Virus record (IMG/VR): IMGVR_UViG_2671180676_000004
Span: 2,122-66,121 of that record
From: a virus
Lineage: Duplodnaviria; Heunggongvirae; Uroviricota; Caudoviricetes
Length of the DNA: 64,000 nt
Direction: 5' to 3' (one strand)
Part shown: one piece after another, positions 25,502-61,601 of the stretch
Position numbering within the stretch: position 1 is the stretch's first letter
Layout of the letters: the number at the start of each line of letters is the position of its first letter
The notes under the pieces: generated by a model
Databases searched by the model: none
What the model saw: only the letters and a program-made list of their open reading frames with translations
What the model was told of the DNA's origin: nothing
Program-made: the position numbers and the translations under genes

Positions 25502-25583
25502 AAACCTCTTTCCTTAGTGCCTTTTGTATGTTATTTGGCTATTATAATAAGTAAGTGATTACTTAGTGGATTGTAGCAATAAA

Positions 25584-26264
25584 ATGGATGTAAAAATCAC
25601 GATTTTGCAGGTTGATGTTGCCAACCTTCGCCCGAATACCTGGAACACCAATTCGGTTGGTGCGCAGAATTTTGAAAAACTGAAAGGTTCTATCGAAAAA
25701 TTGGGCTTTTTTAAGCCAATTTTGGCTCGTGAACTTGAAGATGGATTTTTTGAAATCCTCGGCGGCGAACATCGCTGGCGTGCTGCTATTGAGCAAGGAA
25801 TTTCAACGGTTCCGGTGCTTTCTGTGGGCAAAATTAGCGATGTCGTAGCTAAACAGATGTCACTGGTGGACAACGAGCGATACGGTGAAGACGACCAAAT
25901 CGCATTGCAACGCTTCATTGAAGAAATTCAGTCAGAACTTGACTATCAACTGTCTGAAATCGCCCCGTATGACGACGAAATCTCGATGGTTTTAGCAAAA
26001 GAGGCGGCAATCGACCTTGAAGCACTGGAGGCGTTGTCTCGTGGTAGTGATGAGCCTGTCGATACCGACAAACGAGAGAAAACCGAACGTGTGGGTGCGG
26101 AACATCAGACCATGCGCTTCAAAGTAACTTTCGATGCGTCAGATCGTGTTGCAGAAACCATAAAAAACATCATCAAAGAGCAGGCTATTAACACCGGTAA
26201 TGAAATGGAGAACGCTGGTGAGGCTCTGGTGTGGCTGGTCGACTACTACAAGGAGCGTATGTAA
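25584..26264 (+). CDS. ParB-like nuclease-domain protein 1
   Basis: ATG 25584; ILGGEHRWRAA matches the ParB/Srx arginine-rich box; no obvious HTH domain. Confidence 0.6.
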   Translation: MDVKITILQVDVANLRPNTWNTNSVGAQNFEKLKGSIEKLGFFKPILARELEDGFFEILGGEHRWRAAIEQGISTVPVLSVGKISDVVAKQMSLVDNERYGEDDQIALQRFIEEIQSELDYQLSEIAPYDDEISMVLAKEAAIDLEALEALSRGSDEPVDTDKREKTERVGAEHQTMRFKVTFDASDRVAETIKNIIKEQAINTGNEMENAGEALVWLVDYYKERM

Positions 26265-26932
26265 TGACCAAAAAGTTTGAAATCGTATATCGCGACCCGG
26301 CAGATCTTATTCCCTATGAGATGAATGCCAAAAAGCATGATGAACAGCAGATCCGAGATCTGGCCGCAGCCATTAAAAAGCGCGGATTTGACCAGCCAAT
26401 TACGGTCGATAAGAACGACGTAATTATTACTGGCCACGGCCGCCGTGAGGCTGCAATTTTTGCTGGACTTGAGCGCGTACCGGTTATTGTTCGCGATGAT
26501 CTCAGTGATGACGAGGTTCGTGCGAAGCGCCTTGAAGATAACCGACTTGCCAGCATTGATTACGATGCAATTAAGCTACAGAAAGAGCTTGAGTCGCTTG
26601 TTCTGGACGATATCGAGGTTTTCGGCTTTGAAGAGCGTGAGTTGAATGTTCTCGTTGGCAGTATGACAGAAGAAATGGACACCGACTCGCTAGTTATCGA
26701 TCTTGGCGAAGAAACTAAACGACAGAAGGATGAACACACCGAGATCAGTCGTGAAGTTGCAGCGGAAGAAGTACGTGTTGTCGACGTATTGGGCTTTAAA
26801 ACGCTCCCTGCTGGCTCTGCCATTGTTGTTGGTGATTTGCTTGCCCATATGGAAGAAATGACGGGAGAAAGCGGGGTAGACGCATTTGTGGCATATGCGG
26901 AGAAGATCTCTTCCGGGGAGATGGCTGCATGA
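26264..26932 (+). CDS. ParB-like nuclease-domain protein 2
   Basis: ATG overlaps previous stop (TAATG); ITGHGRREAA ParB-type box; acidic C-terminal half. Confidence 0.6.
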   Translation: MTKKFEIVYRDPADLIPYEMNAKKHDEQQIRDLAAAIKKRGFDQPITVDKNDVIITGHGRREAAIFAGLERVPVIVRDDLSDDEVRAKRLEDNRLASIDYDAIKLQKELESLVLDDIEVFGFEERELNVLVGSMTEEMDTDSLVIDLGEETKRQKDEHTEISREVAAEEVRVVDVLGFKTLPAGSAIVVGDLLAHMEEMTGESGVDAFVAYAEKISSGEMAA

Positions 26933-27594
26933 GCAAATACATCATCAACATATCGTTTCAGACACGCGTAAATAAAACCACGCGCACGTTGGAAATCGCT
27001 GAGTCGTTCGGGCTTGGCCTGGACGAAAAAGAGTGGACGCTTTACGACAATCTGGAGCTGGAAGTGAAGCAGGGCGATGTGGTGTACATCACCGGCCAAT
27101 CCGGTTCCGGCAAATCCGTTGTGCTGCGCGAGTTGCAACGACAGATGAAGGATGAAGGGCTGTCTGTAGCCTCCATCGATGATTTTACCTTCGATAATGA
27201 GGTTAACGTCATCGATCAGTTGGGCAAAACGACCAGTGATGCGCTTGGGTTGTTATCTATGGCTGGTCTGAACGATGCATATCTGTTTGTTCGCAAGCCT
27301 TCTGAAATGTCAGACGGCCAGAAATATCGTCTCAAGATTGCCAAACTGATTGAGTCAGGCGCTAAAGTGTGGGCTGCTGACGAGTTCGGCGCTGTTCTCG
27401 ACCGTGTAACCGCTCAGGTTGTGGCGTCTAACCTCCAGCGTGCCGCGCGAAAGGTTGGTGCGACGGTAATGGTGGCGACGACTCACGAAGACCTGAAGAA
27501 CGCGCTGCGCCCGGATATGCAGATCACCAAGCACTACAAAGAACGCGTGAAGGTGGAATATCACAATGGTAGTCATGATGAGGTCCATTCATGA
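26929..27594 (+). CDS. ABC-type ATPase (nucleotide-binding domain only)
   Basis: 221 aa; Walker A GQSGSGKS, signature-like SDGQKYR, Walker B VWAADEFG, H-loop TTHE; start overlaps previous stop (ATGA). Confidence 0.65.
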   Translation: MSKYIINISFQTRVNKTTRTLEIAESFGLGLDEKEWTLYDNLELEVKQGDVVYITGQSGSGKSVVLRELQRQMKDEGLSVASIDDFTFDNEVNVIDQLGKTTSDALGLLSMAGLNDAYLFVRKPSEMSDGQKYRLKIAKLIESGAKVWAADEFGAVLDRVTAQVVASNLQRAARKVGATVMVATTHEDLKNALRPDMQITKHYKERVKVEYHNGSHDEVHS

Positions 27595-28481
27595 CGGACA
27601 TCATCATTAAACGCTACCGCCCTGAAGAGTTTCCGCGTCATCTGGACTTTCTGGAGCGAATGACTGTTACAAAGGGAACTGTAGAGGACTGGCACGCTCT
27701 TAAGTCGCTTCACTACAAAACAGACGGCAAACCTTTCGCGCCAACTTACTATCGCTGCGAACTTGATGACCGTCTGGTGGGCGTCGTGGTTATGGCTTAC
27801 CCGAAACTACTGTTGGCACCTCGCCACCGCATGTTTCCTAAGTTGAAACCAACCACTAATACCACCGTGGCTAACCAGTACTGGGGTCGGTACGTGAATA
27901 ACAACTTTGCGGTGATCAGTCGCTCAGTTGTGGATACTCAGTATCGTGGCGTAGGCGTCTCTTATCGAATGATTAACCTGGTTAGCAGGATGCATGACCG
28001 GCCAATCATTGAGATCCAGTCCTCGATGAGCAAATACAATCCCTTCGCCATGAAAGCAGGGTTTAAGTTCATCCGCCCTGAGCGACCGAAGAGCTATGAA
28101 AGTGCACTGCGTGTATTCCAGCGCCATTTTCGTTCCGACCCGGGTGATAACGAGGCGATCGTCAAAGAGTTGTTCGCAATGAGCGAGTCTCGTCGTCGCC
28201 GTGCACTGCGTGATCTGGTGGCGGACTACCATAAGAACAGTTCCCTGGCAAAAGCTGGGCGGAATCGTGGCACGACGATTCAGGACATTGCCGACAGTCT
28301 GGTGGACGAGGCCAGCATTGTGAAGTTGCTCAAGGACATTCACAACCTGAGCTTTACGTCTCCGTTGTATGGGGTGTATCGAAACCCTGACTTTGGTCGT
28401 CGACTGCCTGACACGCTGCCACTGCTGGCATTCGACAAACAACCTTTGGATAAACCGTTAGAAATTGCTTTACCGGCATAA
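27591..28481 (+). CDS. GNAT-like acetyltransferase-domain protein with C-terminal extension
   Basis: 296 aa; start overlaps previous stop; QYRGVGVSYRMIN resembles the GNAT acetyl-CoA-binding Q/RxxGxG/A motif. Confidence 0.4.
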   Translation: MTDIIIKRYRPEEFPRHLDFLERMTVTKGTVEDWHALKSLHYKTDGKPFAPTYYRCELDDRLVGVVVMAYPKLLLAPRHRMFPKLKPTTNTTVANQYWGRYVNNNFAVISRSVVDTQYRGVGVSYRMINLVSRMHDRPIIEIQSSMSKYNPFAMKAGFKFIRPERPKSYESALRVFQRHFRSDPGDNEAIVKELFAMSESRRRRALRDLVADYHKNSSLAKAGRNRGTTIQDIADSLVDEASIVKLLKDIHNLSFTSPLYGVYRNPDFGRRLPDTLPLLAFDKQPLDKPLEIALPA

Positions 28482-28490
28482 GGATTTGCC

Positions 28491-28757
28491 ATGACGTTAA
28501 CCGATAAACAAAAGGACATCATCAAAACGCTCAATCTCGGTTATGAGCGAGGTCATCTACTTGATCTGGACGAATTGCTTGAAGTTTTGCCGTACAAGAC
28601 AACCAAGCAAAGTATCCAGTTCTCAATTCGCGCTCTGATAAAAAAGGGGCTTGTGGAGAAAGGGCATACGCGCCAACGCAGTGACAATCGCTATCACCGC
28701 CGAACTCTTGGGTTAACCACTTTAGGTCGAGCCAAAGCGAAGTTACTGGTGATGTAA
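28491..28757 (+). CDS. small putative DNA-binding protein
   Basis: 88 aa, basic C-terminus; followed by about 100-bp inverted repeat 28760-28858. Confidence 0.3.
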   Translation: MTLTDKQKDIIKTLNLGYERGHLLDLDELLEVLPYKTTKQSIQFSIRALIKKGLVEKGHTRQRSDNRYHRRTLGLTTLGRAKAKLLVM

Positions 28758-28759
28758 TC

Positions 28760-28858
28760 GGTCTGGGAGCTTATTTAAAGACCTGCTTCTGTATATATAA
28801 ATAATAAGTAACTTATTAAATATATACGGAAGCAGGCTTAATAAGACATGCCCAGACC
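28760..28858. repeat. about 100-bp imperfect palindrome (long hairpin element, copy 1)
   Basis: outer arms GGTCTGGG / CCCAGACC, inner arms CCTGCTTCTGTATATAT / ATATATACGGAAGCAGG, centre ATAAGTAACTTAT. Confidence 0.6.
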
Positions 28859-28874
28859 TAATTAAACAACCCAG

Positions 28875-28889
28875 AAAACAAGTTGGTTA
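28875..28889. promoter_or_regulatory. palindromic operator-like site (variant)
   Basis: AAAACAA-G-TTGGTTA, first of a tandem pair upstream of terminase genes. Confidence 0.4.
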
Positions 28890-28899
28890 GAAAATGCAG

Positions 28900-28914
28900 T
28901 AAACAAGTTGTTTT
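28900..28914. promoter_or_regulatory. palindromic operator-like site
   Basis: TAAACAA-G-TTGTTTT upstream of ATG 28954. Confidence 0.45.
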
Positions 28915-28953
28915 AGAGCGCATGGACGCGCTCTGTGTGTTTTAGAGGGATCT

Positions 28954-29586
28954 ATGACGGTCGAAAAAGACGAGGTAAAAACTCGCCTGACACCAGCGGA
29001 GTGGGCCGAAGCTGAAGCCAAATGGACGTCAGGCGAATATACACTCTCAAAGCTGGAGGAAGAGTACGGCATTCGTCGTGAAACACTCTCCAGACATTTC
29101 AAAAAGCGAGGATTAGAGAAAGGCGCGGACTCTGTTGGGAAGATGGTTCGTGAGTCTCTTAAATCTGACGCAGAGCTTCGCGCTAAAGCCCGTGCGGAAA
29201 AGATAGAAGAACGTCGTACACGTTATGACGGCTGGGCGTATGCGTTGGGGCAGATGGTGATGGTCGAAGTCACTACGGCCAAACGTGAGGGTAAGCCTTT
29301 AGGGGCGATTGAGGATTCTCTCAAGAGCTTACAGAGAGCCAGTAATACCCTTGCAAAATGCTTTGAAGTTTCGTCCAAAGCATTGGGCATGGATCATGCG
29401 GAAAATGACGAGGAAGAAATTCCGAACCTGGTATTTGGTGAGCTTACGCCTTCCCAGGTGGCGAAATTACGTCAGGAAGACGACGAGCCTGAAATCATCG
29501 ATGACGAATTGCTTGAGACGTTGGAAGAAGAAGCTCTAAGCGAATTTGATGCGACAGATGATGGAAGTGAAGGGGAGGACGAATAA
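28954..29586 (+). CDS. terminase small subunit (putative)
   Basis: 210 aa directly upstream of and overlapping terminase large subunit; acidic C-terminus; two palindromes (28875-28889, 28900-28914) upstream. Confidence 0.5.
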   Translation: MTVEKDEVKTRLTPAEWAEAEAKWTSGEYTLSKLEEEYGIRRETLSRHFKKRGLEKGADSVGKMVRESLKSDAELRAKARAEKIEERRTRYDGWAYALGQMVMVEVTTAKREGKPLGAIEDSLKSLQRASNTLAKCFEVSSKALGMDHAENDEEEIPNLVFGELTPSQVAKLRQEDDEPEIIDDELLETLEEEALSEFDATDDGSEGEDE

Positions 29587-30842
29587 TGGCAATCCCGTCC
29601 TCGCTCAGTCTTGTGCAACTGCATTCTGGACAGATGAAAGTCTTCCAGTCTCCGCATCGATTTAAAGTTGTTTGTGCTGGTCGACGCTGGGGAAAATCCC
29701 GGTTGTCGATCTCCACTATTATTCGTGCGGCGGCAAAGGAAAAAAAGCAAAGGGTCTGGTATGTCGCTCCTACTTACCAGATGGCTCGCCAGATTTTGTG
29801 GGACGATCTACAGGAAGTTCTGCCTCGTAAGTGGGTTAGGAAAAAGAACGACACCACGATGACAATCGTGTTGAAGAACGGTTCGGAGATCGCCCTCAAA
29901 GGTGCTGATAAGCCTGACACTCTGCGCGGCGTAGCGTTGCATTTTGTAGTGCTTGATGAATTTCAGGATATGAAGGCTGACACCTGGTACAAGGTGTTAC
30001 GACCTACTCTTTCATCGACACGCGGCGGTGCACTGATCATTGGTACGCCAAAAGGTTTCTCGGAATTTCACAAACTGTGGACTATAGGCCAGAACGTAGA
30101 GCTGCAAAGAAAGGGACAGTGGAAGAGCTGGCAGTTTGTAACTGCCGATTCTCCGTTTGTGCCTACGGCGGAAATTGAAGCTGCTAAGAACGATATGGAC
30201 CCGAAATCGTTCGCTCAGGAGTACCTGGCGAGCTTTGAGAACATGTCCGGGCGCGTTTACTACCCGTTCGATCGTAACGTGCATGTAAAACCGCTTCAGT
30301 TCAACCCTCGGTTGCCTATATGGGTAGGGCAGGACTTCAACATTGACCCGATGTCTTCAGTAATTTTGCAACCTCAGCCAAATGGTGAGCTATGGGCAAT
30401 TGATGAATTGGTGCTCTTTTCCTCTAACACGGCAGAGGTTTGTGATGAGCTTGAGAGACGCTTCTGGCGCTGGAAATCACAGATAACGGTATTTCCAGAT
30501 CCGGCAGGTGCTTATCGCCAACATGCTCGCGGGGAGTCTGACGTCGACATATTCAAAGAGAAGGGATTCTTACGTGTCGATTATTCGAAAAAGCACCCGC
30601 CAATTGCGGATCGTGTTAATGCTGTTAACCGAATGCTGATGACCGCATCTGGAGATATCCGGTTGTATATCGATCCGAAGTGCAAGCATTTGATTGATTC
30701 ACTGGAAAAAGTCATCTACAAGCCTGGAACACGAGATATGGATAAGACAGGTGGCATTGAGCATAGTGCAGACGCATTGGGCTATCCAGTACATCGTAGG
30801 TATCCAGTCAAAAACCGTGTTATTCTTGGTGGTTCTCGATAG
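29586..30842 (+). CDS. terminase large subunit
   Basis: 418 aa; Walker A-like CAGRRWGKS; Walker B-like VVLDEF; position before portal. Confidence 0.85.
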   Translation: MAIPSSLSLVQLHSGQMKVFQSPHRFKVVCAGRRWGKSRLSISTIIRAAAKEKKQRVWYVAPTYQMARQILWDDLQEVLPRKWVRKKNDTTMTIVLKNGSEIALKGADKPDTLRGVALHFVVLDEFQDMKADTWYKVLRPTLSSTRGGALIIGTPKGFSEFHKLWTIGQNVELQRKGQWKSWQFVTADSPFVPTAEIEAAKNDMDPKSFAQEYLASFENMSGRVYYPFDRNVHVKPLQFNPRLPIWVGQDFNIDPMSSVILQPQPNGELWAIDELVLFSSNTAEVCDELERRFWRWKSQITVFPDPAGAYRQHARGESDVDIFKEKGFLRVDYSKKHPPIADRVNAVNRMLMTASGDIRLYIDPKCKHLIDSLEKVIYKPGTRDMDKTGGIEHSADALGYPVHRRYPVKNRVILGGSR

Positions 30843-30868
30843 GTAAGTAATTATCTAAGGTTATTCAA

Positions 30869-32443
30869 ATGGAATTGAACGACAAACAAATTAAGGATCT
30901 GGTGGCGCGACGCCACCCGGAATACGAAAAGAAAAAAGAACATTGGGACTTCCTCGCCAGCACTTACGCTGGCGGGCGTGGTTGGTTTACAGACAATATC
31001 TTTCGTTACTTTAAAGAGGGAGATCAGGAGTTTAAGGAGCGAGTTGAACGTGCTTATCGCTTCAACCACACTCGTGAGGTGGTAAACCTCATCAACAAAT
31101 ATCTCTTTAAAGAAGACATTCATAGAAATATCGAAGAGGCACCAGAGCAGATCCGCAATTTCTGGAAACGTGCGACTCGCCAGAATGCCTCTATTGACTC
31201 ATTTATGGCCGCTATTGATTTGCAGTCGTCTATTTACGGTCGCATATGGGTTGTTGTCGATAGCACGATGAGTGGTGATGTTGAGTCAGTAGCTGACGAG
31301 AAAAAGAAAGATGCTCGCGCCTACGCCTACTGGATTTCACCTCAGCAAATGCTGGATGTGGCATGGGACGACGACGGGAATATGTTGTGGGCGTTAATTG
31401 TGGAAGTCGCTCGTGATGACGCAGATCCTTTTACTTCTACAGGTCAGGAATACCAACGTTATCGTCTGTGGACACAAAACGAGTGGTATCTGTTCCGTGA
31501 GGAAGTGAAGAAGGGCGCTGGTGGAGCAGGTCGCCGTCAGGCAAAAGTTATTTTAGAGGATAGCGGTGAGCATAATCTCGGCGTAGTTCCTGTGTTTCCT
31601 GTTGATTGTATTGGAGAAAGTGAATCACCGTATTTCAGCCCATCGTTGATCGATGATATCGCTTATCTTGATCGTGCGGTTGCAAACTATCTGTCAAACC
31701 TTGATGCCATTATTCAGGATCAGACATTTAGCCAGTTGGCTATACCGGTACAGTCGCTTTTACCTGGTGATGAAAACCACACTAAAGTGCTTGAAATGGG
31801 CACAAAGCGAGTCTTCACCTACGATTCTGAAGGTGGAAACCAGCCGTTTTATCTGTCACCAGACCCGAAACAAGCTCAGATGATCATCACTACGATTAAG
31901 ACGGTGATTAACGAAATCTACCATTCAGTTGGTGTAGCTGGTGAGCGAACGAAGCAGGACAACGCACAGGGAATCGATAATTCATCTGGTGCCGCAAAAA
32001 TGTATGACTTCCAGCGTGTAAATAGCTTGCTTGTCACAAAAGCAGAGCGTCTGGAAAGGGCTGAACGCCAAATCATGCTACTGGTTGCGAAATGGATGGG
32101 GGTAGATCTGGACGAAGACCACTCTTTAATTGCGTATCCAGAAAGTTTCGATATTCGTGGCCTTACTGATGAATTTTCTGTTGCCGAGAAACTGTCATTA
32201 CTTCAGGCACCGGACTCTGTACGTCGTCACCAGATGGAAATGCTTATTGAGAAGATTTTCCCGAACATTACTGAGGCGATGAAAAAGGAATTTGATAAAG
32301 ATCTCTTGAATTTTCCTCCAAAAAATGATCTAAATACCCTTGAAAATAAGTCAGTACTTACTTATGATCGTGGTGCAGCCCAAGAAAGCGGGCAAGATCA
32401 ACCCCGAGGGAATGGGGACTCATCTACTCAAGAGAACGAGTGA
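30869..32443 (+). CDS. portal protein
   Basis: 524 aa following terminase; size and position typical of siphovirus portal. Confidence 0.7.
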   Translation: MELNDKQIKDLVARRHPEYEKKKEHWDFLASTYAGGRGWFTDNIFRYFKEGDQEFKERVERAYRFNHTREVVNLINKYLFKEDIHRNIEEAPEQIRNFWKRATRQNASIDSFMAAIDLQSSIYGRIWVVVDSTMSGDVESVADEKKKDARAYAYWISPQQMLDVAWDDDGNMLWALIVEVARDDADPFTSTGQEYQRYRLWTQNEWYLFREEVKKGAGGAGRRQAKVILEDSGEHNLGVVPVFPVDCIGESESPYFSPSLIDDIAYLDRAVANYLSNLDAIIQDQTFSQLAIPVQSLLPGDENHTKVLEMGTKRVFTYDSEGGNQPFYLSPDPKQAQMIITTIKTVINEIYHSVGVAGERTKQDNAQGIDNSSGAAKMYDFQRVNSLLVTKAERLERAERQIMLLVAKWMGVDLDEDHSLIAYPESFDIRGLTDEFSVAEKLSLLQAPDSVRRHQMEMLIEKIFPNITEAMKKEFDKDLLNFPPKNDLNTLENKSVLTYDRGAAQESGQDQPRGNGDSSTQENE

Positions 32444-32464
32444 TAAGTAACAAAGGGAATTTTT

Positions 32465-33352: not shown

Positions 33353-33377
33353 CATCTAAATCAAAGGGAATTGATAG

Positions 33378-34253: not shown

Positions 34254-34284
34254 TCAGTGTAGTAGATAAGTAGTTATCTATGTT

Positions 34285-34313
34285 AAAGGGTGGGCTATAC
34301 GCCCACCCTTTTT
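34285..34313 (+). terminator. intrinsic terminator after major capsid gene
   Basis: AAAGGGTGGGC-tatac-GCCCACCCTTT followed by TTG. Confidence 0.7.
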
Positions 34314-34326
34314 GTAGGAGCGAGAA

Positions 34327-35247: not shown

Positions 35248-35291
35248 CCGATATTGGGCGGCTTTCGCCGCCCAAGTGGAGAGAAAGCGTT

Positions 35292-37447: not shown

Positions 37448-37448
37448 T

Positions 37449-37832: not shown

Positions 37833-37906
37833 CTCAATTGGTAAGTATATACTTACTATTAGCGCAATGAATGCGTAGAATTAACGGAAAAAGGAGTTTT
37901 CCATCA

Positions 37907-42300: not shown

Positions 42301-43955
42301 ATGCCTCGCAGCGTGCGGCCAAGAAAGAACAGGCAGCGCAACAGAAACTGGCGGCCGGATATCAGAAGGCTCTGGATAAAGCCGATCAGCTTATGGGGCA
42401 AATGGGTGAAAGCTCTAAGGCTACGGTATCGTTTGATCAGTCTCTTCGCGATACAACAAAATCGCTAACTGATTTGGCTAATGCGATTCCTAACGAGTTC
42501 ATCACTCAAGAGATGATCGACAAGGCGAAAAAACGTCTTGAAGACCTCAAAAATGCGACACCTGAATATCGCGAGATGTTTAATCGCCGCAATGTTGAGC
42601 AGATGATCTCCACTTGGGCACCGGAGGCGGATTCCATTATTAGTGCTGGCTATACGCCATCTCGCGAAGAGAAAGTTGCTGATTTCGAAGACACCTACAA
42701 CCGCAATCTCAAAGCGTTGATAGAACTTCGTGATAAGGCGTCTGATCCTAAAGTTGTGGCGCTTTATACAAAGAAAATCAATCAACTGATTGCTGCTGGC
42801 AATACCGCGCTTATTAAAGAGACGGGGACTGCGACGCAGAAGTTGGCACTGGAATACGAAAACCTGGCAGAGCAGGTCGAAAGCACCTGGACTGATTTGT
42901 TTAGTGGCTTAACTGATGTCCTGACTGATTTCGTTATTAACGGGAAGATGAGCTTCTCCAGCCTATCTCAGTCCATTTTGAAAGATATCACCAATATGGT
43001 CGTGAAGTCGCAGATCACGCTGCCTCTAATGAACATGTTGGGGATGGGAACCACCGCAGCTGGTAGTTCACAGAGTGGCAATTTGCTGACCGGGGTTGCT
43101 TCTGCCGTTGCCAATCAAGGTGTACGAATGGGCAACACTGTTAATGGCGACAAGTCGGTAGGAGAAGCCACGAAGGAGACGTCCAGTTCGGTAACTGGAT
43201 TGGGGCAAACAACACAGCAGACCACCAGCGCAATTGGCACAGCAACAAATGCGATTGGTAGCTGGGTATCGGGGCTATTTGATAGCACCGAAGCCAAAGA
43301 TGCTGAGACAAAAGCAGTGAAGGACTCCATCTTCTCGATGCAGAATCTCAGCTCTGTTACCGGCGCTCTGTCAGCCGCGTTTGCAATGCTTGGAGCTAAT
43401 GCTTCCGGCTCTGGTAATAAGTGGTTGAATTTCGGCGCGACAGTTGCATCTGGTTTGGTTTCAGTATGGGCTGGTGGTGGATTCGATGGATTGATGTCCG
43501 GTTCTTCTGGCTCAACTTCCGGGTTCAACAATCTGACCAGTTCTGCTGCCGATGGCACGAATGGTATTCCTGCAATTCCGAAGTTTGCAAATGGTGGCAT
43601 ATTCGGAAAAGACGGCGTGATCCCGCTCCGGGCATACCAGAAAGGCGGTATCGCCAACTCACCTCAATTGGCGTTGTTTGGGGAAGGCGATATGAATGAG
43701 GCGTATGTTCCATTGCCTGATGGTCGAACAATCCCTGTAACGCTCAGTACCGATGGTATGAGTGGAGGAGGAAATGTTCTTTCTCCGGTATCAATTGAGA
43801 TCAACGTCCATAGTGACGGTAGCACAACTGAATCCGGCGATACAGAAAGCATATGGAACAATGCCGCTCAACGGATGAAAGCAATCGCGCTTGAGACTAT
43901 CGCTCAAGAGAAACGCCCTGGCGGATCACTCAACCCAAACACTCAACGTAACTAA
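39363..43955 (+). CDS. tape measure protein
   Basis: 1530 aa, helical N-terminal half, Gly/Ser-rich C-terminal region; position after G/T chaperones. Confidence 0.85.
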   Translation: MAEDDKGMSQNVEFILSLEDKQFTASIDRAGKLLTRFGEQVTKPAQKIQTFERSLGSVARIMGVLESKLDSTADKLQDVAAGFELASDATRKMRGNITSLNSGLKALIERVDTTTSSVDKLTASLRKVQSELNDFSDWATYASKSASRFGTEVKEASASVSGMNTRLNTTTKRLSNWGVTTSQAAEGLKKVREQMDEVIGRQQLISKPVRVRTSGSGDGGSGRRSGASGHSGKSNEGGMFSGLRGNIFLLGEIGDAARTVTDIMFGWQKPIVEAAAEMERMRVMLRGLNKEKSNPGQAAADDMKYIVDMAQNAPFAMQALTDSFVKFRSAGLDPTDGSLKALVDSVARFGGDSELLKRAAVAVQQMSGKGVVSMEELRQQLGEAVPNAMQAMADAAGITMGELTKAVASGTVEAKQALSLMFVGLRAENENAAKDMMQTYTGALAQLQTSFTLFADRVGQAGYLDSLSKGMKELASIMNSAEGISFANSLGSGLTTAIDGLRQLAQWLAKNQELVINLGKVVAAMVAFKLMRAGVMGVVGAGSQMVSTFATMATAIQTPFNLGATAVTRFNRAARMGLAPIPSLIFAIRGAITGLKGAFAGLTAFIAANPIGAAFTVATVAVAGLITYMTMLRSETSKVVDEIRKIPEAMTAAKRAQMADRAEKLEKQILADQRALKTGEGVNYVSNSAGVITHKESKADIEARLKKNQEEYQKITGTIALGDGAVAKRLAKEAAESQIEKIRAENQIFAATFVKARQEALDKIQKINDDGSLSDDEKNKLLAPLRETVNKSYLEPAQKLVDSLSSRKNATEKQIATLNDQLEKAKKDGNTEQIQKLQGSIRGYQEHLEAVAQELTQAEFERDNAAKTGKGVMSNQGTVLGLGTTDKAAQKALAQYMRNQMDSATYQRTLPDGTPMMDFEGKPIIGPKQLKTQLNLQKASSASSLEKMSDEERAAAIAALTKAREQDAAAAEKAAQRSANASQRAAKKEQAAQQKLAAGYQKALDKADQLMGQMGESSKATVSFDQSLRDTTKSLTDLANAIPNEFITQEMIDKAKKRLEDLKNATPEYREMFNRRNVEQMISTWAPEADSIISAGYTPSREEKVADFEDTYNRNLKALIELRDKASDPKVVALYTKKINQLIAAGNTALIKETGTATQKLALEYENLAEQVESTWTDLFSGLTDVLTDFVINGKMSFSSLSQSILKDITNMVVKSQITLPLMNMLGMGTTAAGSSQSGNLLTGVASAVANQGVRMGNTVNGDKSVGEATKETSSSVTGLGQTTQQTTSAIGTATNAIGSWVSGLFDSTEAKDAETKAVKDSIFSMQNLSSVTGALSAAFAMLGANASGSGNKWLNFGATVASGLVSVWAGGGFDGLMSGSSGSTSGFNNLTSSAADGTNGIPAIPKFANGGIFGKDGVIPLRAYQKGGIANSPQLALFGEGDMNEAYVPLPDGRTIPVTLSTDGMSGGGNVLSPVSIEINVHSDGSTTESGDTESIWNNAAQRMKAIALETIAQEKRPGGSLNPNTQRN

Positions 43956-44333: not shown

Positions 44334-44415
44334 GTATCTGGATAAGTAAGTACTAATCTACTATCATTGTGGCGCTGACAGGATGTTAGCGCCTACTTAT
44401 TTCAAGGATGAAACA

Positions 44416-51230: not shown

Positions 51231-51323
51231 TGGTGGAAAAAAAATTTTATATCGGTAAAAATAGGTAAGTATTTACTTAATGGCGGACAAGGATAACCCG
51301 CCAAATCAAGGAGCATATTCAAC

Positions 51324-55613: not shown

Positions 55614-55803
55614 TTTAGACATTATTTATATGGCTGTGAGGTTTAAAATGCGATCTCACAGCCGCAATCATAGGGATATATTAGTGAGTTACTAGATACG
55701 AATTTGAACAGCCGTTAAACGGTATATACATAGATAGGTAAGTATATACCTATAATTGAAAGGAGAAGTGTGATATAAATCCGCCATCCCGATTTGACTT
55801 TTC

Positions 55804-56139: not shown

Positions 56140-56152
56140 CAGGAGATCAAGG

Positions 56153-56845
56153 ATGAAGACTCCGAGAGGCATTCGTAATAATAACCCCGGTAATCTTGAT
56201 AAAGGATCACCGTGGCAAGGTCTGGTTGCGAATCCAGACGAACCGCGCTTTTGCACGTTTAAAGACCCTGTTTGGGGGATTCGTGCGCTGGCGGTGACTC
56301 TAATTACCTACCACGATAAACGTCGCGCAAAAGACGGCACAAGTATCGATACCATTCGTGAAGTTATTGAACGCTGGGCACCGCCGAATGAAAACAATAC
56401 TGACGCCTACATTAATGAGGTGTCTAAAGCCGTTGGTGTAACCGCAGACATGATCATCGATCTGCATGATTACGACATCCTTCGACCTTTGGTTGAGGCA
56501 ATCATTCGCCACGAGAATGGCCGAGGCCCGCTAAAAACGCTGAACACCTGGTATGCGGCAGAAGTTATTGAGGAAGGTCTGCGTCGAGCTGGCGTTGTTA
56601 AGCCGGTGAAAACCGTGAAGGCTGTTCCTGTAACTAAAGAAACCGCAGGCGCAACTGTTACAGCAGGTATTGGTCTGGCGCAGCTGGCCGATGTTATGCC
56701 GCAGGTTTCCGCTGCTATGGATAAAGCACAAGGTCATATCTCTAGCGGGGATACAGTACGCATCATCTTCGGTATTGCCACTATTGTTGTGGCAGGATTC
56801 ATTGCCTGGTCGCAGGTAAGAAAACATCAGAAAGGGATGGTCTAA
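56153..56845 (+). CDS. putative endolysin / cell-wall-active protein with C-terminal membrane anchor
   Basis: ATG 56153 with AGGAG upstream; conserved-looking N-terminal motif GIRNNNPGNL; C-terminal hydrophobic helix; sits between holin candidate and spanins. Confidence 0.35.
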   Translation: MKTPRGIRNNNPGNLDKGSPWQGLVANPDEPRFCTFKDPVWGIRALAVTLITYHDKRRAKDGTSIDTIREVIERWAPPNENNTDAYINEVSKAVGVTADMIIDLHDYDILRPLVEAIIRHENGRGPLKTLNTWYAAEVIEEGLRRAGVVKPVKTVKAVPVTKETAGATVTAGIGLAQLADVMPQVSAAMDKAQGHISSGDTVRIIFGIATIVVAGFIAWSQVRKHQKGMV

Positions 56846-56846
56846 T

Positions 56847-57098
56847 ATGCTAGGCAGCCTGATGACAAAGCTAAAAGTTGCTTTGATTACGCTGGCTGCC
56901 GTTCTTTTCGTTCTTGTCGGCGCTTACACGATGGGCGGGAATGCGGCGCGACGAGCAATGGAAGAGAAGGCAAAACAGGAAGACAGAAAACGACTTCAAA
57001 GCACAGTGGAAGTGGTGAATGAGACGAGCAATAAAATACGTCAGAAAGATGCTTCTGCCGTTCATCGTGAGTTGTATGATAAGTGGGTGCGTCATTAA
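56847..57098 (+). CDS. i-spanin (Rz-like)
   Basis: 83 aa, N-terminal transmembrane helix then charged helical region; overlaps lipoprotein gene in another frame. Confidence 0.5.
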   Translation: MLGSLMTKLKVALITLAAVLFVLVGAYTMGGNAARRAMEEKAKQEDRKRLQSTVEVVNETSNKIRQKDASAVHRELYDKWVRH

Positions 57099-57234
57099 AC
57101 CACAAACCGCCAGCGTATTGTTCTGCGATGGAGCTGGGCCTATCTATATCAGCAATAATGATGTGATGACCGAAGAAACCGAACGCCAAATCCTTTTTCA
57201 CAATACGATGGGAGAGAGAGTTTGCGGTTGGTGA
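57019..57234 (+). CDS. o-spanin (Rz1-like lipoprotein)
   Basis: 71 aa in a different frame overlapping Rz-like gene; signal peptide with lipobox ISGC. Confidence 0.5.
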   Translation: MRRAIKYVRKMLLPFIVSCMISGCVIKPQTASVLFCDGAGPIYISNNDVMTEETERQILFHNTMGERVCGW

Positions 57235-57265
57235 TGCGAAGTTCCCCTCACTTGAGGGGAGTACA

Positions 57266-57787
57266 TTATTCTTCGAACAATTTTTCGATAGATTTTGTAG
57301 GATAGAACAAAGAACGCTCGTTGTTACCAACCAGCTGGATAAAGCCTAAACTTTTATAAAACGCCTTGGCTTTGTCATTTAACGCCTCAACGAAAAGTCC
57401 ATGAATGCCTACAGCAAGAGATGCATTGTACACAACGCGCATTGCATGTGTTACAAGCATTGAGCCAAATCCTTGACCTTGAAGGGACTTGTCCAAAGCC
57501 AGCCTACCCAAAGTAACACTTGGAACATTCCGATAAGGTACCTTCTTTTGCTGGCTTCTTGAAGGTAAGGACTCCTTTTCAAAGCAGCTGCCTGACAAAG
57601 TGTAATACCCTAACACTTTTGGTCTGTCTTCTTTCGTGAAAAGCACATAAGCGCGAAGAATTTTTCCCTCATGCTGCCTTTTTAAGTGGTTGGTTAAAAA
57701 GGCATTTAGTGATTCTTCACCGCAATCAAAACCATTCAAATCATAATCTTTCTCTCCAGAGAAAATTTCTATCTTTATATTATCCAC
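57266..57787 (-). CDS. GNAT-family toxin (TacT/AtaT-type aminoacyl-tRNA acetyltransferase)
   Basis: 173 aa; GNAT motif QGQGFGSMLV; immediately downstream of DUF1778-type antitoxin gene. Confidence 0.75.
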   Translation of the reverse strand: MDNIKIEIFSGEKDYDLNGFDCGEESLNAFLTNHLKRQHEGKILRAYVLFTKEDRPKVLGYYTLSGSCFEKESLPSRSQQKKVPYRNVPSVTLGRLALDKSLQGQGFGSMLVTHAMRVVYNASLAVGIHGLFVEALNDKAKAFYKSLGFIQLVGNNERSLFYPTKSIEKLFEE

Positions 57788-57794
57788 GAGTAAA

Positions 57795-58103
57795 CTACTC
57801 CATGCTTTTCAGACGATCAGCAGCTCGTTTCAGCTTGTCGTTCGGTGCCGGAGGATTGCTTATAGCGTCCATAACCAGATTCCAGGATTCTTCATTCAGA
57901 ACTAGTCTACGGTGTTGCTCTATAACTTTCACGGCACGTTCAGATGCACTGCTAACCATAAACTGAGTAATGCTCTGGTTAGACATTGCGGCAGCTTCCT
58001 CGATGATGCTTTTATCGTCATCGGTTAATCTCAAATCGATGCGCTGCTTTTTTAGTGCTGACATGTATTCCTCCTGATGGCCGTGATGTAGGAAGGCCAT
58101 CAA
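57795..58103 (-). CDS. DUF1778-type (TacA-like) antitoxin
   Basis: About 90-100 aa (real start may be internal ATG at 58064); RHH-like N-terminus KKQRIDLRLTDDDK; classic partner of GNAT toxins. Confidence 0.7.
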   Translation of the reverse strand: MMAFLHHGHQEEYMSALKKQRIDLRLTDDDKSIIEEAAAMSNQSITQFMVSSASERAVKVIEQHRRLVLNEESWNLVMDAISNPPAPNDKLKRAADRLKSME

Positions 58104-58333
58104 TCTCCTCTGTTCAAACTGAGTTTTCGACTCAAAAATTACTTTAAAAGGCTATAGCCCATTACGTGTGCATTATCAAATTGTGTACGGCATATCACCG
58201 TACTTGTAATATAGAGGTCATTGTTACTTTTTTCAACAGACAAATACAAGCTATGATTGCCAATTGTTAATCACAACCTACCATTTAACCTTTACACCGC
58301 AGCCGTAGGCATTTAGGCTATATCACATATAAG

Positions 58334-58348
58334 AAAACAAGTTGTTTC
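58334..58348. promoter_or_regulatory. palindromic operator-like site
   Basis: AAAACAA-G-TTGTTTC upstream of parA ATG 58383. Confidence 0.5.
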
Positions 58349-58382
58349 AGACGATAATTATATACGCAAAGGGAACTCTCCA

Positions 58383-59051
58383 ATGACCAAGATCTTTGTG
58401 GTTGGCGGCACAAAGGGCGGGCCTGGCAAATCCACCGTTGCCCAGCAAATTGCCGTTTGCCTGAAAGTCAAAAAGAAGAAGAAGGTTTATATTACCGATA
58501 TAGATATTCAGCGCACGACAACGAGCTGGTGTGAAGACCGTCGACAGAACGAAGACCTTGAGCTGATTCCTTTTGCATACGTTCAGGATGACATCATTAA
58601 GCACCTAAAATCGCTTCAGGGTAGAGCTGAGTTTGTAGTGGTAGATGCTGGTGGCTTCGACTCCGAAATTCAGCGACAAGCGATGCTGATGGCTGACGTT
58701 ATCATTATCCCGCTGCGTCCTAAGCGTCGTGATTTGAAATCTTTACGTGACATCGATCCTATTATCGACAATGTTCGCAATGTAAACGATAAAGTGAAGG
58801 TCCGCGCGGTCATGAACCAGTGCCCGGCTTTGCCATCACAAGTGTCTCGCATTCTGGCGGCTAAAGAGATTGTCGAGACGTTTGGCATCGAGTCTGCGCC
58901 AGTCAATCTATATAACCGCAACGTCTACGATGATGCGGAAGAGTCTGGTCGTTCTATCTTCGAAATGACCGGTAGCGAGCGCGACAAAAAGGCGGAAGCC
59001 GAGTTTGAAGAATTTGTAGATTATCTGTTGAGTCTGGAGGAAGAAGAATAA
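58383..59051 (+). CDS. parA: ParA-family partition ATPase (small, type Ib)
   Basis: 222 aa; deviant Walker A GGTKGGPGKST; palindrome 58334-58348 upstream. Confidence 0.8.
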   Translation: MTKIFVVGGTKGGPGKSTVAQQIAVCLKVKKKKKVYITDIDIQRTTTSWCEDRRQNEDLELIPFAYVQDDIIKHLKSLQGRAEFVVVDAGGFDSEIQRQAMLMADVIIIPLRPKRRDLKSLRDIDPIIDNVRNVNDKVKVRAVMNQCPALPSQVSRILAAKEIVETFGIESAPVNLYNRNVYDDAEESGRSIFEMTGSERDKKAEAEFEEFVDYLLSLEEEE

Positions 59052-59410
59052 TGTCCATGAAAATGGGTGACCTAGCAAAGCGCAAAGAGCCTGATGCACC
59101 GGCTAAGAACACAACTCCTTTGCGCCAACCAGTCAGACCACAAGGACGCCCGACTCGTGGCAAAGAGAAAATTAAAAGCCGCACCATGTCACTGGAAGAC
59201 GAATACTTCGAGCTTCTGGAAATGATGAAGTTTATCCCTCGTTTCGAGAAGTTCACCCGCTCTGATGTGATTCGTGCTGCTATTTTCCATCTGGCAGAGA
59301 AGTCGCCGCAGGAAATCGAGGATATCGTGAAACTTAACGAGGCGATCACTGCTGCCGACGTCACGATGCGTACCGATGAAATCAAACGCGAGTTGATGAA
59401 GAAAGGTTAA
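59051..59410 (+). CDS. small partition partner protein (ParG/RHH-like, tentative)
   Basis: 119 aa, basic disordered N-terminus, start overlaps parA stop; terminator 59418-59442 downstream. Confidence 0.45.
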   Translation: MSMKMGDLAKRKEPDAPAKNTTPLRQPVRPQGRPTRGKEKIKSRTMSLEDEYFELLEMMKFIPRFEKFTRSDVIRAAIFHLAEKSPQEIEDIVKLNEAITAADVTMRTDEIKRELMKKG

Positions 59411-59417
59411 TTTTATT

Positions 59418-59442
59418 GAGGTGCTGCTTGGCACCTCTTTCT
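59418..59442 (+). terminator. intrinsic terminator after partition operon
   Basis: GAGGTGC-tgcttg-GCACCTC followed by TTTCT. Confidence 0.5.
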
Positions 59443-59454
59443 ATAGGTTCCCTA

Positions 59455-60174
59455 ATGCTCTACAAATATATTGGAAGTGAAGATTCGCAAAAAGTGTTAC
59501 GTAACCTCAAACGGTTTGTAGAGGACGGCACTATCTCTGCTAGCGCACCTTCTTCATTCAACGACCCATCAGAGTTCAAAGTTTCGATAACGATGGGAGG
59601 TACAGAAGTGGAGCGCCGGAAACACTTTGAAGACAATGGATGTAAGGATTTTTCCTTTGAAGACTGGGATGCTGTAGCTCCTGAAGCTGCAAAATCGTTG
59701 GCTGTGGATTTGCGGAAAGAATCATTAGGGGCTTTTGGTGTGGTGTGCTTGTCACCAAACGAAGATAACATCTTGATGTGGTCACATTACTCAGTGTCGC
59801 ATAAAGGTTTCTGCATAGGCTTTGATGATGATTTTGTTACCTCTATTGAGGGGTATCACAGCTTTGATAATGTGAAATATATACCTTCTGTTCCCGTGTT
59901 CGATGAAGTTACAGATGAGTTTAAGGTACTTTTTGATAAGCTCTTTTTCTACAAGCACGAATGCTGGAAATATGAGGAAGAACAAAGGGTTATTACTAAA
60001 AAAATAGGCGCTCAGGCATTTGATAAGAAATATATTAGAGAGATCATTCTTGGACATAACGTTTCTCCTGAAGTAGAAGAATATGCCCGGACACAGCTAG
60101 ACACGAGCATCGAGGTTTACAAAATGAGTACACCTGATGATGGTTATCTTCTTGTCAAAGAAAAGCTGAAGTAG
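59455..60174 (+). CDS. hypothetical protein (low-GC cargo gene 1)
   Basis: ATG 59455 after terminator hairpin; motifs FNDPSEF and MWSHYSVSHKGFCIGF; family not confidently recognised (possibly DUF2971-like). Confidence 0.4.
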   Translation: MLYKYIGSEDSQKVLRNLKRFVEDGTISASAPSSFNDPSEFKVSITMGGTEVERRKHFEDNGCKDFSFEDWDAVAPEAAKSLAVDLRKESLGAFGVVCLSPNEDNILMWSHYSVSHKGFCIGFDDDFVTSIEGYHSFDNVKYIPSVPVFDEVTDEFKVLFDKLFFYKHECWKYEEEQRVITKKIGAQAFDKKYIREIILGHNVSPEVEEYARTQLDTSIEVYKMSTPDDGYLLVKEKLK

Positions 60175-60240
60175 CTCCAGACTTTCCTCAAATGATTATG
60201 TTGGGCGCTTTTCTTATTGAACTGGTTAGTGAGGCTAATA

Positions 60241-61413
60241 ATGGATTTGTTCTCAACCAAAATAGCAAAAAACAAGCTGCACGAATCTTTTAAACAGATT
60301 TATCAAGATAATACATATGCTCCAGTAAGAGAAGTGATACAGTCGTGGGGGCGTGGGTTACTGGAGCGTAGCGGTGAGCAGACTAAATTCGTTAAAGAGT
60401 TTCAGACAACCTTCAATTCCGCCTTATGGGAATTGTATCTGAACGAAATGTTTATTCGTCTCGATTATTCTGTCGACTACACAAAAGACAGTCCCGATTT
60501 CTGTGTTACTACACCGTCAGGCTACCAGTTTAACGTCGAAGCTGTGATATCAGATCGGCCACATAATCCACCTGCAGGTGCTCTTTTTAGCGAATTAAAA
60601 TTCAAACATCAATCAACGCTAAAATTAATCGGAAAAATCAAAGACAAACATGATCTTTTTACAGGAGTTAATGGCAAAAAATTCCCGTACTCTACGATGT
60701 CTCATGTAGTTAATAAGCCGTTTGTTCTGGCGCTTGCACCCTTTGACTCCGATTTATCATTGTCTCAAAATAACACAATCATCAATCGAGTGTTGTTTGG
60801 CATTGAGGAACCTACCACCAGAAATTTGGTGACTGGCAGCCAAACTAAAGTTACCTCAATCAAAAAGAATGAAGACGTTGAAATTCCATTAGGTATATTT
60901 ACTAACGACTCATATAAAGAAATAAGTGCGGTTATTTTCTCCACCACCGGCACTTTTGGAAAAGCCGTGGTTCAAAGCGGTATCGGTAGATATGTAAGGT
61001 CAACACGATATCGAGCCATTGATGTGAATGATTTCATCGCCAATGAAGGGATGAAAAACGAGGGAAAGCACACACAAAGGATAGGACCTGATCATTTCAT
61101 CACTACATATCGGCATTTTTTAAATAACGAAGTCACTGGTGCGGATATTGTAGTTTGTCATTCCACTGCTCATGAAGAGACGCACTTTGACGGCCTTCAT
61201 ATTTACTACAATCCTTTTGCGACAGTGCCACTGGACAGAAATATTTTCTTCCCCCCAGAGATAACTCATAATTTTTACGATATGGAAAAAGAACAGTCTG
61301 TTCAGAATCATCCTGATGGAGCGCTGGTATCTAGACAGGTTTTTGAACCAACTAGAGCACATTTTAGGTATATCATGAAACATTGGTTTCCAGGCTTTCT
61401 AAAAGATGTTTAA
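60241..61413 (+). CDS. hypothetical protein (low-GC cargo gene 2)
   Basis: ATG 60241 with GAGG upstream; 390 aa; followed by long hairpin 61439-61492 plus T-run. Confidence 0.4.
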   Translation: MDLFSTKIAKNKLHESFKQIYQDNTYAPVREVIQSWGRGLLERSGEQTKFVKEFQTTFNSALWELYLNEMFIRLDYSVDYTKDSPDFCVTTPSGYQFNVEAVISDRPHNPPAGALFSELKFKHQSTLKLIGKIKDKHDLFTGVNGKKFPYSTMSHVVNKPFVLALAPFDSDLSLSQNNTIINRVLFGIEEPTTRNLVTGSQTKVTSIKKNEDVEIPLGIFTNDSYKEISAVIFSTTGTFGKAVVQSGIGRYVRSTRYRAIDVNDFIANEGMKNEGKHTQRIGPDHFITTYRHFLNNEVTGADIVVCHSTAHEETHFDGLHIYYNPFATVPLDRNIFFPPEITHNFYDMEKEQSVQNHPDGALVSRQVFEPTRAHFRYIMKHWFPGFLKDV

Positions 61414-61438
61414 GCATCCTGCTGGTTGAATTTGGAAC

Positions 61439-61492
61439 CTGCTTCTGTATATAAATACTAAGTTACTTATTATTATTTATACGGAAGCAGGT
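61439..61492. repeat. long hairpin element, copy 2 (same arms as 28782-28836)
   Basis: CCTGCTTCTGTATATA ... TATACGGAAGCAGG with centre TAAGTTACTTA, followed by TCTTTTTCT. Confidence 0.6.
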
Positions 61493-61601
61493 CTTTTTCT
61501 ATGCCAACTTCCCAGACACATTCCCTTCCGTTTCCACTTCCAAAAACTGCCACCAGTCGCTATCATCCGCTCATTGCAATAAGTAAGTAACTACCTATCT
61601 G

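Follow-up and report, generated by a model that had tools for sequence, protein, structure and literature searches.

The recurrent palindrome of an SSU5-type phage-plasmid

The window analysed here is a 64,000-nucleotide (nt) stretch of a Caudoviricetes virus (positions 2,122 to 66,121 of IMG/VR virus record IMGVR_UViG_2671180676_000004), in which a short palindrome recurs around terminase, portal, capsid, tail, lysis and replication genes. It is 100% identical to the E. coli plasmid NZ_CP157149.1, and its identity to Escherichia phage Cyrano (pLF82; 98% over common parts) and to Salmonella phage SSU5 (~81%) marks it as an SSU5-type phage-plasmid. Such elements are common in Escherichia, Klebsiella, Salmonella, Enterobacter and Yersinia, and 2,228 plasmid records match some part of the window. 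Gene coordinates were carried over from the Cyrano annotation. Comparisons also drew on the first 50 kb of Klebsiella phage pJN2-26 and on fragments of distant relatives from an IMG/VR scan (L065, L080, L027, L089, L072 and L117), with a GC content of either 58-63% or ~43% and with proteins 30-58% identical to those of this element (terminase large subunit TerL, 53-58%; major capsid protein, 40-51%).

The half-site RTAAGTA occurs 24 times in the window, against 9.1 +/- 2.7 expected. After re-alignment, the unit becomes a 20-bp palindrome, ATArGTAAGT/ACTTAyyTAT, with a TA step each 4 bp. Allowing up to three mismatches, ATARGTAAGTNNTTAYYTAT gives 20 matches at 11 loci in the window against 0.20 expected from shuffled sequences, and a scan of the whole Cyrano genome yields ~27 sites against 1-3 in shuffled sequence. 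The logo built from 41 sites is symmetric, with information limited to the 20 bp. An original prediction, made from the letters of this stretch, had described a TAAGTA-centred palindromic family; such a family does exist, with a longer unit than was then seen. Its members and adjoining features are as follows, in window coordinates.

18493-18512 (core 18497-18512): spacing variant GTAAGTAC/ATACTTAC; accessory/early region, past a terminator and 43 nt before a gene
25547-25566: palindrome ATAAGTAAGTGATTACTTAG; divergent region between UvsW and ParB genes, 17 nt before parB and 45 nt before uvsW
30839-30858: palindrome ATAGGTAAGTAATTATCTAA; terL-portal junction, enclosing the terL stop codon TAG
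32340-32368, + strand: predicted sigma-70-like promoter TTGAAA-17-TATGAT, with the palindrome at 32346-32365 as its spacer
32346-32365: palindrome ATAAGTCAGTACTTACTTAT; within the 3' end of the portal gene, next gene 99 nt on
34262-34281: palindrome GTAGATAAGTAGTTATCTAT; 8 nt past the stop of the major capsid gene
34288-34309, + strand: intrinsic terminator hairpin GGGTGGGC..GCCCACCC, then a T run; 5' arm starting at the predicted +1 of the palindrome promoter
37837-37856 (core 37841-37856): spacing variant GTAAGTAT/ATACTTAC; 50 nt before the major tail gene
44342-44361: palindrome ATAAGTAAGTACTAATCTAC; junction of gpM-like and gpL-like genes, with a GC hairpin (44371-44393) beginning at the predicted +1
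51261-51280: palindrome ATAGGTAAGTATTTACTTAA; junction of gpJ-like and tail fibre genes
55734-55753: palindrome ATAGGTAAGTATATACCTAT; 62 nt before the holin gene, its final three bases opening a perfect TATAAT
61579-61598: palindrome ATAAGTAAGTAACTACCTAT; 12 nt before the first gene of the helicase-primase operon (replication, not late)

Seven of the ten sites first proposed are regular members. Five of these had been correctly placed (25547-25566, 30839-30858, 34262-34281, 55734-55753 and 61579-61598), and two, given as 44351-44364 and 51273-51289, missed true positions at 44342-44361 and 51261-51280. An eighth, 37841-37856, is a spacing variant with the half-sites GTAAGT and ACTTAC 4 bp apart. 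The last two, 28804-28816 and 61458-61470, do not belong to the family, since they form the loops of a ~58-nt hairpin that is present twice. Two members had been overlooked, at 32346-32365 (within the portal gene) and at 18497-18512.

The two ~58-nt hairpins are near-perfect and are each followed by a T-rich tail. One (28781-28838) ends the ParB..DBD operon just 5' of terS, and the other (61437-61492) ends the parA operon; with folding energies of -33.9 and -25.2 kcal/mol (z scores of -10.8 and -5.7), they are probably strong terminators, possibly bidirectional ones. Their loops, ATAAGTAACTTAT and CTAAGTTACTTAT, hold exact matches to AAGTnACTT, the form of the P1 Lpa box.

Restriction of the family to late operons, as first proposed, turns out to be an artefact of the window. 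Some 16 of the ~27 Cyrano sites lie among replication, recombination and nucleotide-metabolism genes (e.g., at the UvsY-SSB, RuvC-RNR and MazG-ThyX junctions, after RecA and before Dam), and late specificity was apparent because the window holds the late region plus a site-poor accessory region. Restriction to intergenic gaps holds for all but one of the ~27 copies per 108 kb. Direct reading of the palindrome reveals stop codons on both strands in all three frames, so that its scarcity within genes follows in part from its own sequence. A second palindrome family, AAACAAnTTGTTT, had been set against this one as a mark of early, replication and partition genes. That contrast fails, since terS is among the genes that AAACAAnTTGTTT precedes and the family is thus not an early-only mark. 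With up to two mismatches, it has 19 matches against 6.2 expected, with copies in the window at 503, 1232, 14752, 14803, 17610, 18094, 18997, 19761, 28876, 28901, 58335 and 62363; copies stand 12-41 nt 5' of the start codons of terS (two copies), parA, a helicase gene and accessory genes.

The 20-bp palindrome is, on present sequence comparisons, a deeply conserved element of SSU5-type phage-plasmids genome-wide. SSU5 and Klebsiella pJN2-26 carry it at the same junctions, including perfect copies (ATAGGTAAGTACTTACCTAT). The distant relatives keep rTAAGTAAG-nn-CTTACTTAy at orthologous junctions, namely in the gap of the divergent UvsW and ParB genes, at the TerL-portal junction, behind the capsid gene and RuvC, and ahead of the tail tube gene and hyp31. 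Site 25547, with a left core half-site of 6/6 and a right one of 5/6, has orthologs in Klebsiella and in the 60% GC relatives L065, L080 and L027. Those of site 30839 have perfect cores of the SlmA-binding-site (SBS) type, discussed below, in SSU5 and Klebsiella, and form complete promoters in distant relatives (e.g., TTGCAA-17-TACAAT). Site 32346 has the same sequence in SSU5 and Klebsiella, the Klebsiella ortholog of site 34262 is a perfect ATAGGTAAGTACTTACCTAT, and an ortholog of site 61579 precedes the hyp31 homolog of the distant relative L072.

What has been conserved is base identity. In a set of 201 distinct 20-mers, changes on one side are far more numerous than compensated ones (e.g., 117 v 4, 69 v 5 and 58 v 2), and Watson-Crick pairing does not exceed the level predicted by column independence for 8 of the 10 pairs. 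Because both halves keep their bases without compensation of pairing, the palindrome bears the signature of DNA recognition, which points to a symmetric protein on double-stranded DNA.

Promoter register and expression

Taken together, the sequences and the published RNA-seq of Cyrano in strain LF82 (supplementary table of PMC9928086) suggest that positions -29 to -10 of sigma-70-like promoters, whose starts are predicted ones, are taken up by the palindrome, which makes up the spacer and the opening half of the -10 box. The 60% GC relatives have TTGCCA, TTGCAA, TGGACA, TTGAAA or TTGACT exactly 17 bp 5' of the -10, and the -10 boxes of the GC-rich relatives (TATGAT, TACAAT, TATAGT or TATGTT) begin at palindrome position 18, always in the direction of the gene. 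TTGACA-like hexamers peak at the 17-bp offset, in a count that is inflated by orthologs. Within the window, the predicted promoter at 32340-32368 scores 10/12 and is the top promoter-like match between 25 and 45 kb, and TTGAAT-18-TATACT is present at site 37837.

In the Cyrano lysogen, all palindrome-preceded units are at background, including those with promoters scoring 10/12 (PMC9928086). The same table includes a partly induced condition (macrophage, 6 h), in which a UmuD-like gene is up. There, expression rises by 2.5, 3.6 and 3.7 log2 exactly across the Cyrano sites 9018, 57446 and 59399, by 2.5 log2 across the counterpart of site 37837, and by 1.2 log2 across that of 32340-32368 for the genes 3' of it. 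A gene at the degenerate Cyrano site 34730 is leaky in every condition. Drops in expression at palindrome junctions arise because ordinary intrinsic terminators sit upstream of the palindromes, in the layout stop, terminator, palindrome/promoter, gene; the palindromes themselves were accordingly rejected as terminators or roadblocks.

After the capsid gene, terminator and promoter overlap. The 5' arm of a strong hairpin begins at the predicted +1 in 6/6 lineages (window; SSU5 and Klebsiella; L065, L027 and L089), the arrangement spanning 34262-34309 in the window, with orthologs in L006, L129, L065, L027 and L089. Judging from this geometry, transcripts arriving from upstream would terminate, while those begun at the palindrome promoter, which would lack the 5' arm, would read through. 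A conserved terminator overlapped by the start of the next promoter may be useful independently of the identity of the binder.

SlmA-binding sites and TetR-family operators

SlmA is a TetR-family nucleoid-occlusion factor of E. coli that binds GTGAGTACTCAC (PMC3020112). In its SBSs, G, T, A and G are obligatory at positions 1, 2, 4 and 5, with a purine at 3 and a pyrimidine at 6; a G-to-A change at position 3 shifts the Kd from ~50 to ~60 nM (PMC3020112). The SBScons oligonucleotide is AAGTAAGTGAGCGCTCACTTACGT and a half of the native site SBS17 is ATTTACTTAC (PMC4423959). SlmA occupies an SBS as a dimer of dimers (PMC4117426) and, when bound, antagonises FtsZ (PMC3020112).

The phage consensus core GTAAGT/ACTTAC fits the SBS rule GTRAGY/RCTYAC. 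In the 41-site logo, the successive core positions show G at 88%, T at 100%, R at 90%, A at 80%, G at 73% and Y at 98%, and the mirror half has similar values. The motif's own variation (T/C at position 10, A/G at 11) parallels the tolerance of SlmA. The extended flanks GTAA..TTAC are matched as well, by (A/G)TA(A/G) at phage positions 1-4 and (C/T)TA(T/C) at 17-20. The right half of site 51261, ATTTACTTAA, is nearly that of native SBS17, ATTTACTTAC; in 5,182 of 5,426 E. coli genomes, SBS17 is present once, on the chromosome. SBS cores with at most one mismatch are enriched 4- to 23-fold across the window (7 v 1.6 expected), Cyrano (14 v 3.0), SSU5 (17 v 2.8), the 50 kb of Klebsiella (11 v 1.5) and the distant relatives (e.g., L080, 7 v 0.3), with no enrichment in the P1 control (1 v 1.4). 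Perfect cores number three in SSU5 and four in the Klebsiella 50 kb, and each distant relative has them.

Another perfect core, GTAAGTGCTTAC, lies outside the window at Cyrano 42603-42622, 28 nt 5' of the Cyrano-specific repressor gene CYRAN_45 and within the divergent promoter region that this gene shares with the strongly inducible CYRAN_46.

The same palindrome recurs far from phages. A search for GTAAGTAAGTNNTTACTTAC through the prokaryotes, with one genome for each species, returned at least 120 bacterial or archaeal loci against ~17 expected overall and far fewer expected in high-GC genomes, the loci including seven Nocardia species, Acidobacteriota, Bifidobacterium and Methanosarcina. 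At 88 of the at least 120 matches listed, a gene of ~200 amino acids (aa) starts 1-12 nt from the palindrome; all seven such neighbours that were tested are TetR-family (PF00440), and two match the NCBIfam SlmA model best. The usual layout, TTGACA - palindrome - (TAC)AAT - ATG, has the same register as in the phage. Because TetR genes adjoin the same palindrome in a matching promoter register, the phage palindrome is, by its sequence and position, an operator of the TetR-family type. As at these loci, it lies over the promoter between the -35 and -10 boxes, in the manner of a TetR autoregulatory operator; a cognate TetR gene, adjacent or on the same element, did not appear in the phage-plasmid sequences searched.

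Among the matches listed (L130-L249), GTAAGTAAGTnnTTACTTAC is a widespread TetR-family operator in diverse Bacteria and Archaea, at which the leaderless TetR gene usually starts 6-7 nt after the -10, and ~12 of the matches have a YtfE/RIC-like di-iron gene ~620-670 nt from the palindrome, on either strand. One 20-bp palindrome serving as the operator of TetR regulators in such diverse organisms may be of use independently of SlmA.

Candidate binders, alternative readings and known systems

We consider that the palindromes constitute ~25-35 promoter-operator modules of the SlmA-binding-site type, with host SlmA as their most likely binder, a reading that we put at roughly 55%. SlmA is the likeliest candidate because the phage-plasmid sequences searched gave no sign of a TetR-family gene: tblastn with 17 TetR neighbours and an SlmA sequence had no hit at E <= 0.01 in the window, in Cyrano, in SSU5, in the first 50 kb of pJN2-26 or in fragments from four distant relatives, and none of the scanned window proteins hit PF00440. 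SlmA is encoded by E. coli, Salmonella and Klebsiella. Each 20-bp TetR-type operator would form the spacer and first -10 half of a sigma-70-type promoter, and the modules would head structural, lysis, replication and nucleotide-metabolism transcription units. SlmA would bind as a dimer of dimers, using four half-sites that are each shifted by 4 bp; by analogy with TetR/QacR-type geometry and the reported dimer-of-dimers binding, this would account for the 4-bp periodicity and for the variants with 4-bp spacing at 37841 and 18497. A protein that covers positions -29 to -10 is expected to repress; SlmA on the sites of the plasmid-prophage would thus block RNA polymerase and keep even consensus-like promoters silent. 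Upon over-replication, sites would outnumber SlmA and the promoters would fire, and the SBS-rich DNA of the element may also change SlmA's control of FtsZ. A conserved host factor as binder would account for a site that stayed constant while the phage proteins diverged to 30-55% identity.

Several points weigh against this interpretation. (i) A very divergent TetR-type regulator could escape tblastn with these queries, which for pJN2-26 and the distant relatives covered partial sequences. (ii) The window is without a perfect 12-bp core, the left half matching at 6/6 positions in 8 of 10 sites and the right half at 4-6/6; the native sites SBS12 and SBS17 are likewise imperfect (PMC4423959). (iii) Most enteric sites have weak -35 boxes (mean, 2.8/6), and several copies come within 1-12 nt of the next start codon and are directly followed by the ribosome-binding site, so that not every copy is likely to be a working promoter of its neighbour. 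(iv) In the lysogen, uvsW and the gene hyp117 are transcribed from the region of site 25547. (v) SlmA is without a known role as a transcriptional repressor, and E. coli SBSs avoid promoters (PMC3020112); its one known regulatory action is activation in V. cholerae from 167 bp upstream.

A larger scheme, which we offer as tentative, would have the SSU5 lineage do without a dedicated master repressor: host SlmA at ~30 promoter sites would silence a 100-kb lytic programme at ~5 copies per cell, runaway replication would titrate SlmA as a copy-number-gated switch, and the flood of SBSs would redistribute SlmA and stop or uncouple Z-ring formation.

Of the alternatives, the one that survives best, though we judge it rather unlikely, is that the operators serve a repressor other than SlmA, either another host TetR protein or an unrecognised phage DNA-binding protein, in a regulon of scattered operators like that of P1 C1 or the L5 stoperators. 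Temperate phages normally encode their own repressor, the operator type is common to many TetR proteins, and a core-like site lies 5' of the Cyrano repressor gene. That gene, CYRAN_45, is the only annotated repressor; it was rejected as the binder since its integrase-repressor module is absent from SSU5, which retains all the sites. Pfam, PHROG and NCBIfam scans of ~35 window proteins brought up only ParB N-terminal domains, a FljA-like protein and a weak winged-helix hit, and no TetR domain appeared in the phage-plasmid sequences searched. Among the phage candidates, the 92-aa hyp117 (ortholog of CYRAN_117; 23661-23939, - strand) is among the best-expressed conserved genes of the Cyrano lysogen, and its invariant N-terminal TxCQVxL..KAN..L segment resembles the strand-helix motif of ribbon-helix-helix (RHH) proteins. 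A role as an RHH repressor was not confirmed: the structural model has a pLDDT of 55, hits of the PDB profile search were spurious, and there was no hit to an RHH or helix-turn-helix (HTH) domain. The 88-aa protein encoded 5' of terS (28491-28757) has only weak Lrs14/Sta1-like winged-helix hits and is unexpressed in the lysogen. For the ParB-like protein as a KorB/Noc-like binder, support was likewise wanting, since only an N-terminal ParB domain is detectable, its gene is silent in the lysogen and its AlphaFold model (pLDDT 39) is unusable. Another candidate, a FljA-family protein (PF03614, 'repressor of phase-1 flagellin', E 2.5e-84; 22641-23243, - strand), is conserved in SSU5 and the Klebsiella relatives, and the literature gave no usable information on its target sequence. 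In relatives whose 20-bp site is unchanged, the candidates are 28-57% identical or undetectable, which would be unusual for a repressor and its operator.

A further small gene, CYRAN_81, an open reading frame of 44 codons outside the window (Cyrano 78657-78791), is 98% identical in SSU5 against ~84% for its neighbours. Its expression in the lysogen is strong, at ~117 units where the background is 10, and it may act in the immunity system as a small regulatory RNA or a micro-protein.

It is also conceivable, though to us unlikely, that SlmA binds and the selected function is control of cell division (protection from guillotining, help in segregation, or a block or deregulation of the Z-ring during lytic growth), with location at promoters being incidental. 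The action of SBS-bound SlmA on FtsZ suits such a role, as does a density of about one site per 4-8 kb against about one per 90-190 kb on the chromosome, and stops in all frames would by themselves keep the element out of genes. Yet the -35/-10 register is fixed to the base pair in the distant relatives and is the same as in autoregulated TetR promoters, and incidental placement would be unlikely to conserve it.

The original prediction, that these are late promoters or sites of a late activator, fares in part: a protein-binding element associated with promoters is what the sequences and the published RNA-seq suggest. Neither 'late' nor 'activator' holds up: sites stand before genes of the early, replication and lysis classes, an Lpa-like activator is missing (tblastn with P1 Lpa had no hit in the window and a best E of 0.29 in Cyrano), and the consensus -35 boxes of the distant relatives require none. 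We therefore regard the box of a phage-encoded activator, on the model of the P1 Lpa box AAGTnACTT at -22, as improbable. Most enteric sites do combine a poor -35 with a decent -10, P1 late promoters have the similar half-site and geometry AAGTnACTT-N4-TAnnnT, and expression steps up across some sites in partial induction. The palindrome, however, has its centre at -19.5 and extends over T-12 and A-11, and a dimer sitting there would be expected to compete with sigma. Promoters scoring 10/12 are silent in the lysogen, and an activator would be unneeded where consensus -35 and -10 boxes flank the palindrome, as in the distant relatives and at the TetR loci.

Action in RNA, as an intergenic hairpin for processing, stabilisation or translational control of polycistronic transcripts, is very improbable. 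Many copies begin -4 to +18 nt from the upstream stop codon, some stand just 5' of a ribosome-binding site, and the phage encodes a FljA-like protein, FljA being a factor that acts on mRNA. The folds, though, are weak (mean, -4.2 kcal/mol) and equally so in sense and antisense, some sites score better on the antisense strand, Rfam gave 0 matches at the gathering threshold over the entire window, and both halves keep their identity without covariation, on which grounds we set the RNA hairpin aside. Least probable of all is a selfish or structural repeat (REP- or MITE-like, or a cruciform) spread between genes without a specific trans factor: the element is multicopy, palindromic, intergenic and AT-rich, but relatives with 30-55% protein identity are occupied at identical junctions, conservation covers 20 bp only with no flanking repeat unit, many imperfect palindromes retain consensus bases, and the identical sequence is a TetR operator elsewhere.

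If SlmA does bind, this would be, within the literature searched, the first known mobile element with sites for a nucleoid-occlusion protein in its promoters; phage gene control would be tied to the host division machinery, and SlmA would gain a repressor role not known in E. coli. In that literature we found nothing on the motif, nor on the control of lysogeny or of the lytic programme in SSU5-type elements, for which the palindrome is a first candidate cis-regulatory code of the entire family, with a specific candidate trans factor.

In the window, a complete type I restriction-modification system (hsdR, 1038 aa; hsdS, 412 aa; hsdM, 520 aa; 3425-9461, - strand) adjoins a truncated DUF4942 (methylase-like) gene at 2890-3366, and Cyrano is without the system at that position. 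Genes for a lysogen-expressed MinD/ApbC-like ATPase (11376-12476, - strand) and a full methionyl-tRNA synthetase (12634-14667) are both missing from SSU5.

Four known systems bear comparison. Chromosomal SBSs (Tonthat 2011, PMC3020112) follow the same core rule and are likewise multicopy and dispersed, and their 20-bp consensus GTAAGTGAGCGCTCACTTAC agrees with the phage form GTAAGTAAGTACTTACTTAC except at two R/Y-tolerant positions per half. They number 24-52 per genome and are mostly intragenic, with none in promoters (PMC3020112), whereas the phage copies number ~27 per 108 kb, all but one intergenic, in a fixed promoter register; those in the window mostly have one degenerate half and are candidate SlmA sites. 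Autoregulated TetR promoter-operators (TTGACA - palindrome - TACAAT - leaderless tetR-like gene) are identical to the phage modules in palindrome and -35/-10 register, as in TTGACAA-GTAAGTAAGTACTTACTTAC-AAT at the TetR locus L192 and TTGCAA-GTAAGTAAGTCCTTACTTAC-AAT in the phage relative L080; in the phage-plasmids, by contrast, no tetR gene was detected in the sequences searched, and the module is repeated ~30 times before unrelated genes.

Late promoters of P1, six of which were extracted from the P1 record, share with the present sites a phage-plasmid setting, a multicopy palindromic AAGT/ACTT box in the spacer, a -10 just downstream and, often, no -35. The Lpa box, however, is 9 bp long, centred at -22 and 4 bp 5' of TAnnnT, whereas the phage palindrome is 20 bp long, centred at -19.5 and overlaps the -10; box length, spacing, gene class (the phage sites are not confined to late genes), the missing Lpa homolog and the consensus -35 boxes of the relatives exclude a P1-like late promoter. 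A regulon of the P1 C1 type was likewise excluded, as neither a C1 homolog nor the 17-bp operator ATTGCTCTAATAAATTT was found. The L5 stoperator is an asymmetric 13-bp site, set in one orientation relative to transcription and bound by the phage repressor. The present sites lie, as stoperators do, in short intergenic gaps of early and late operons; they are symmetric, and some copies score higher when read on the other strand. Both the C1 operators of P1 and the stoperators of mycobacteriophage L5 resemble the palindromes in number (~20-30 copies), in placement and in the silence of the lysogen, but at 17 and 13 bp they are asymmetric and are served by a phage-encoded repressor, where the SSU5-type phage-plasmids have a palindrome and, probably, a binder supplied by the host.

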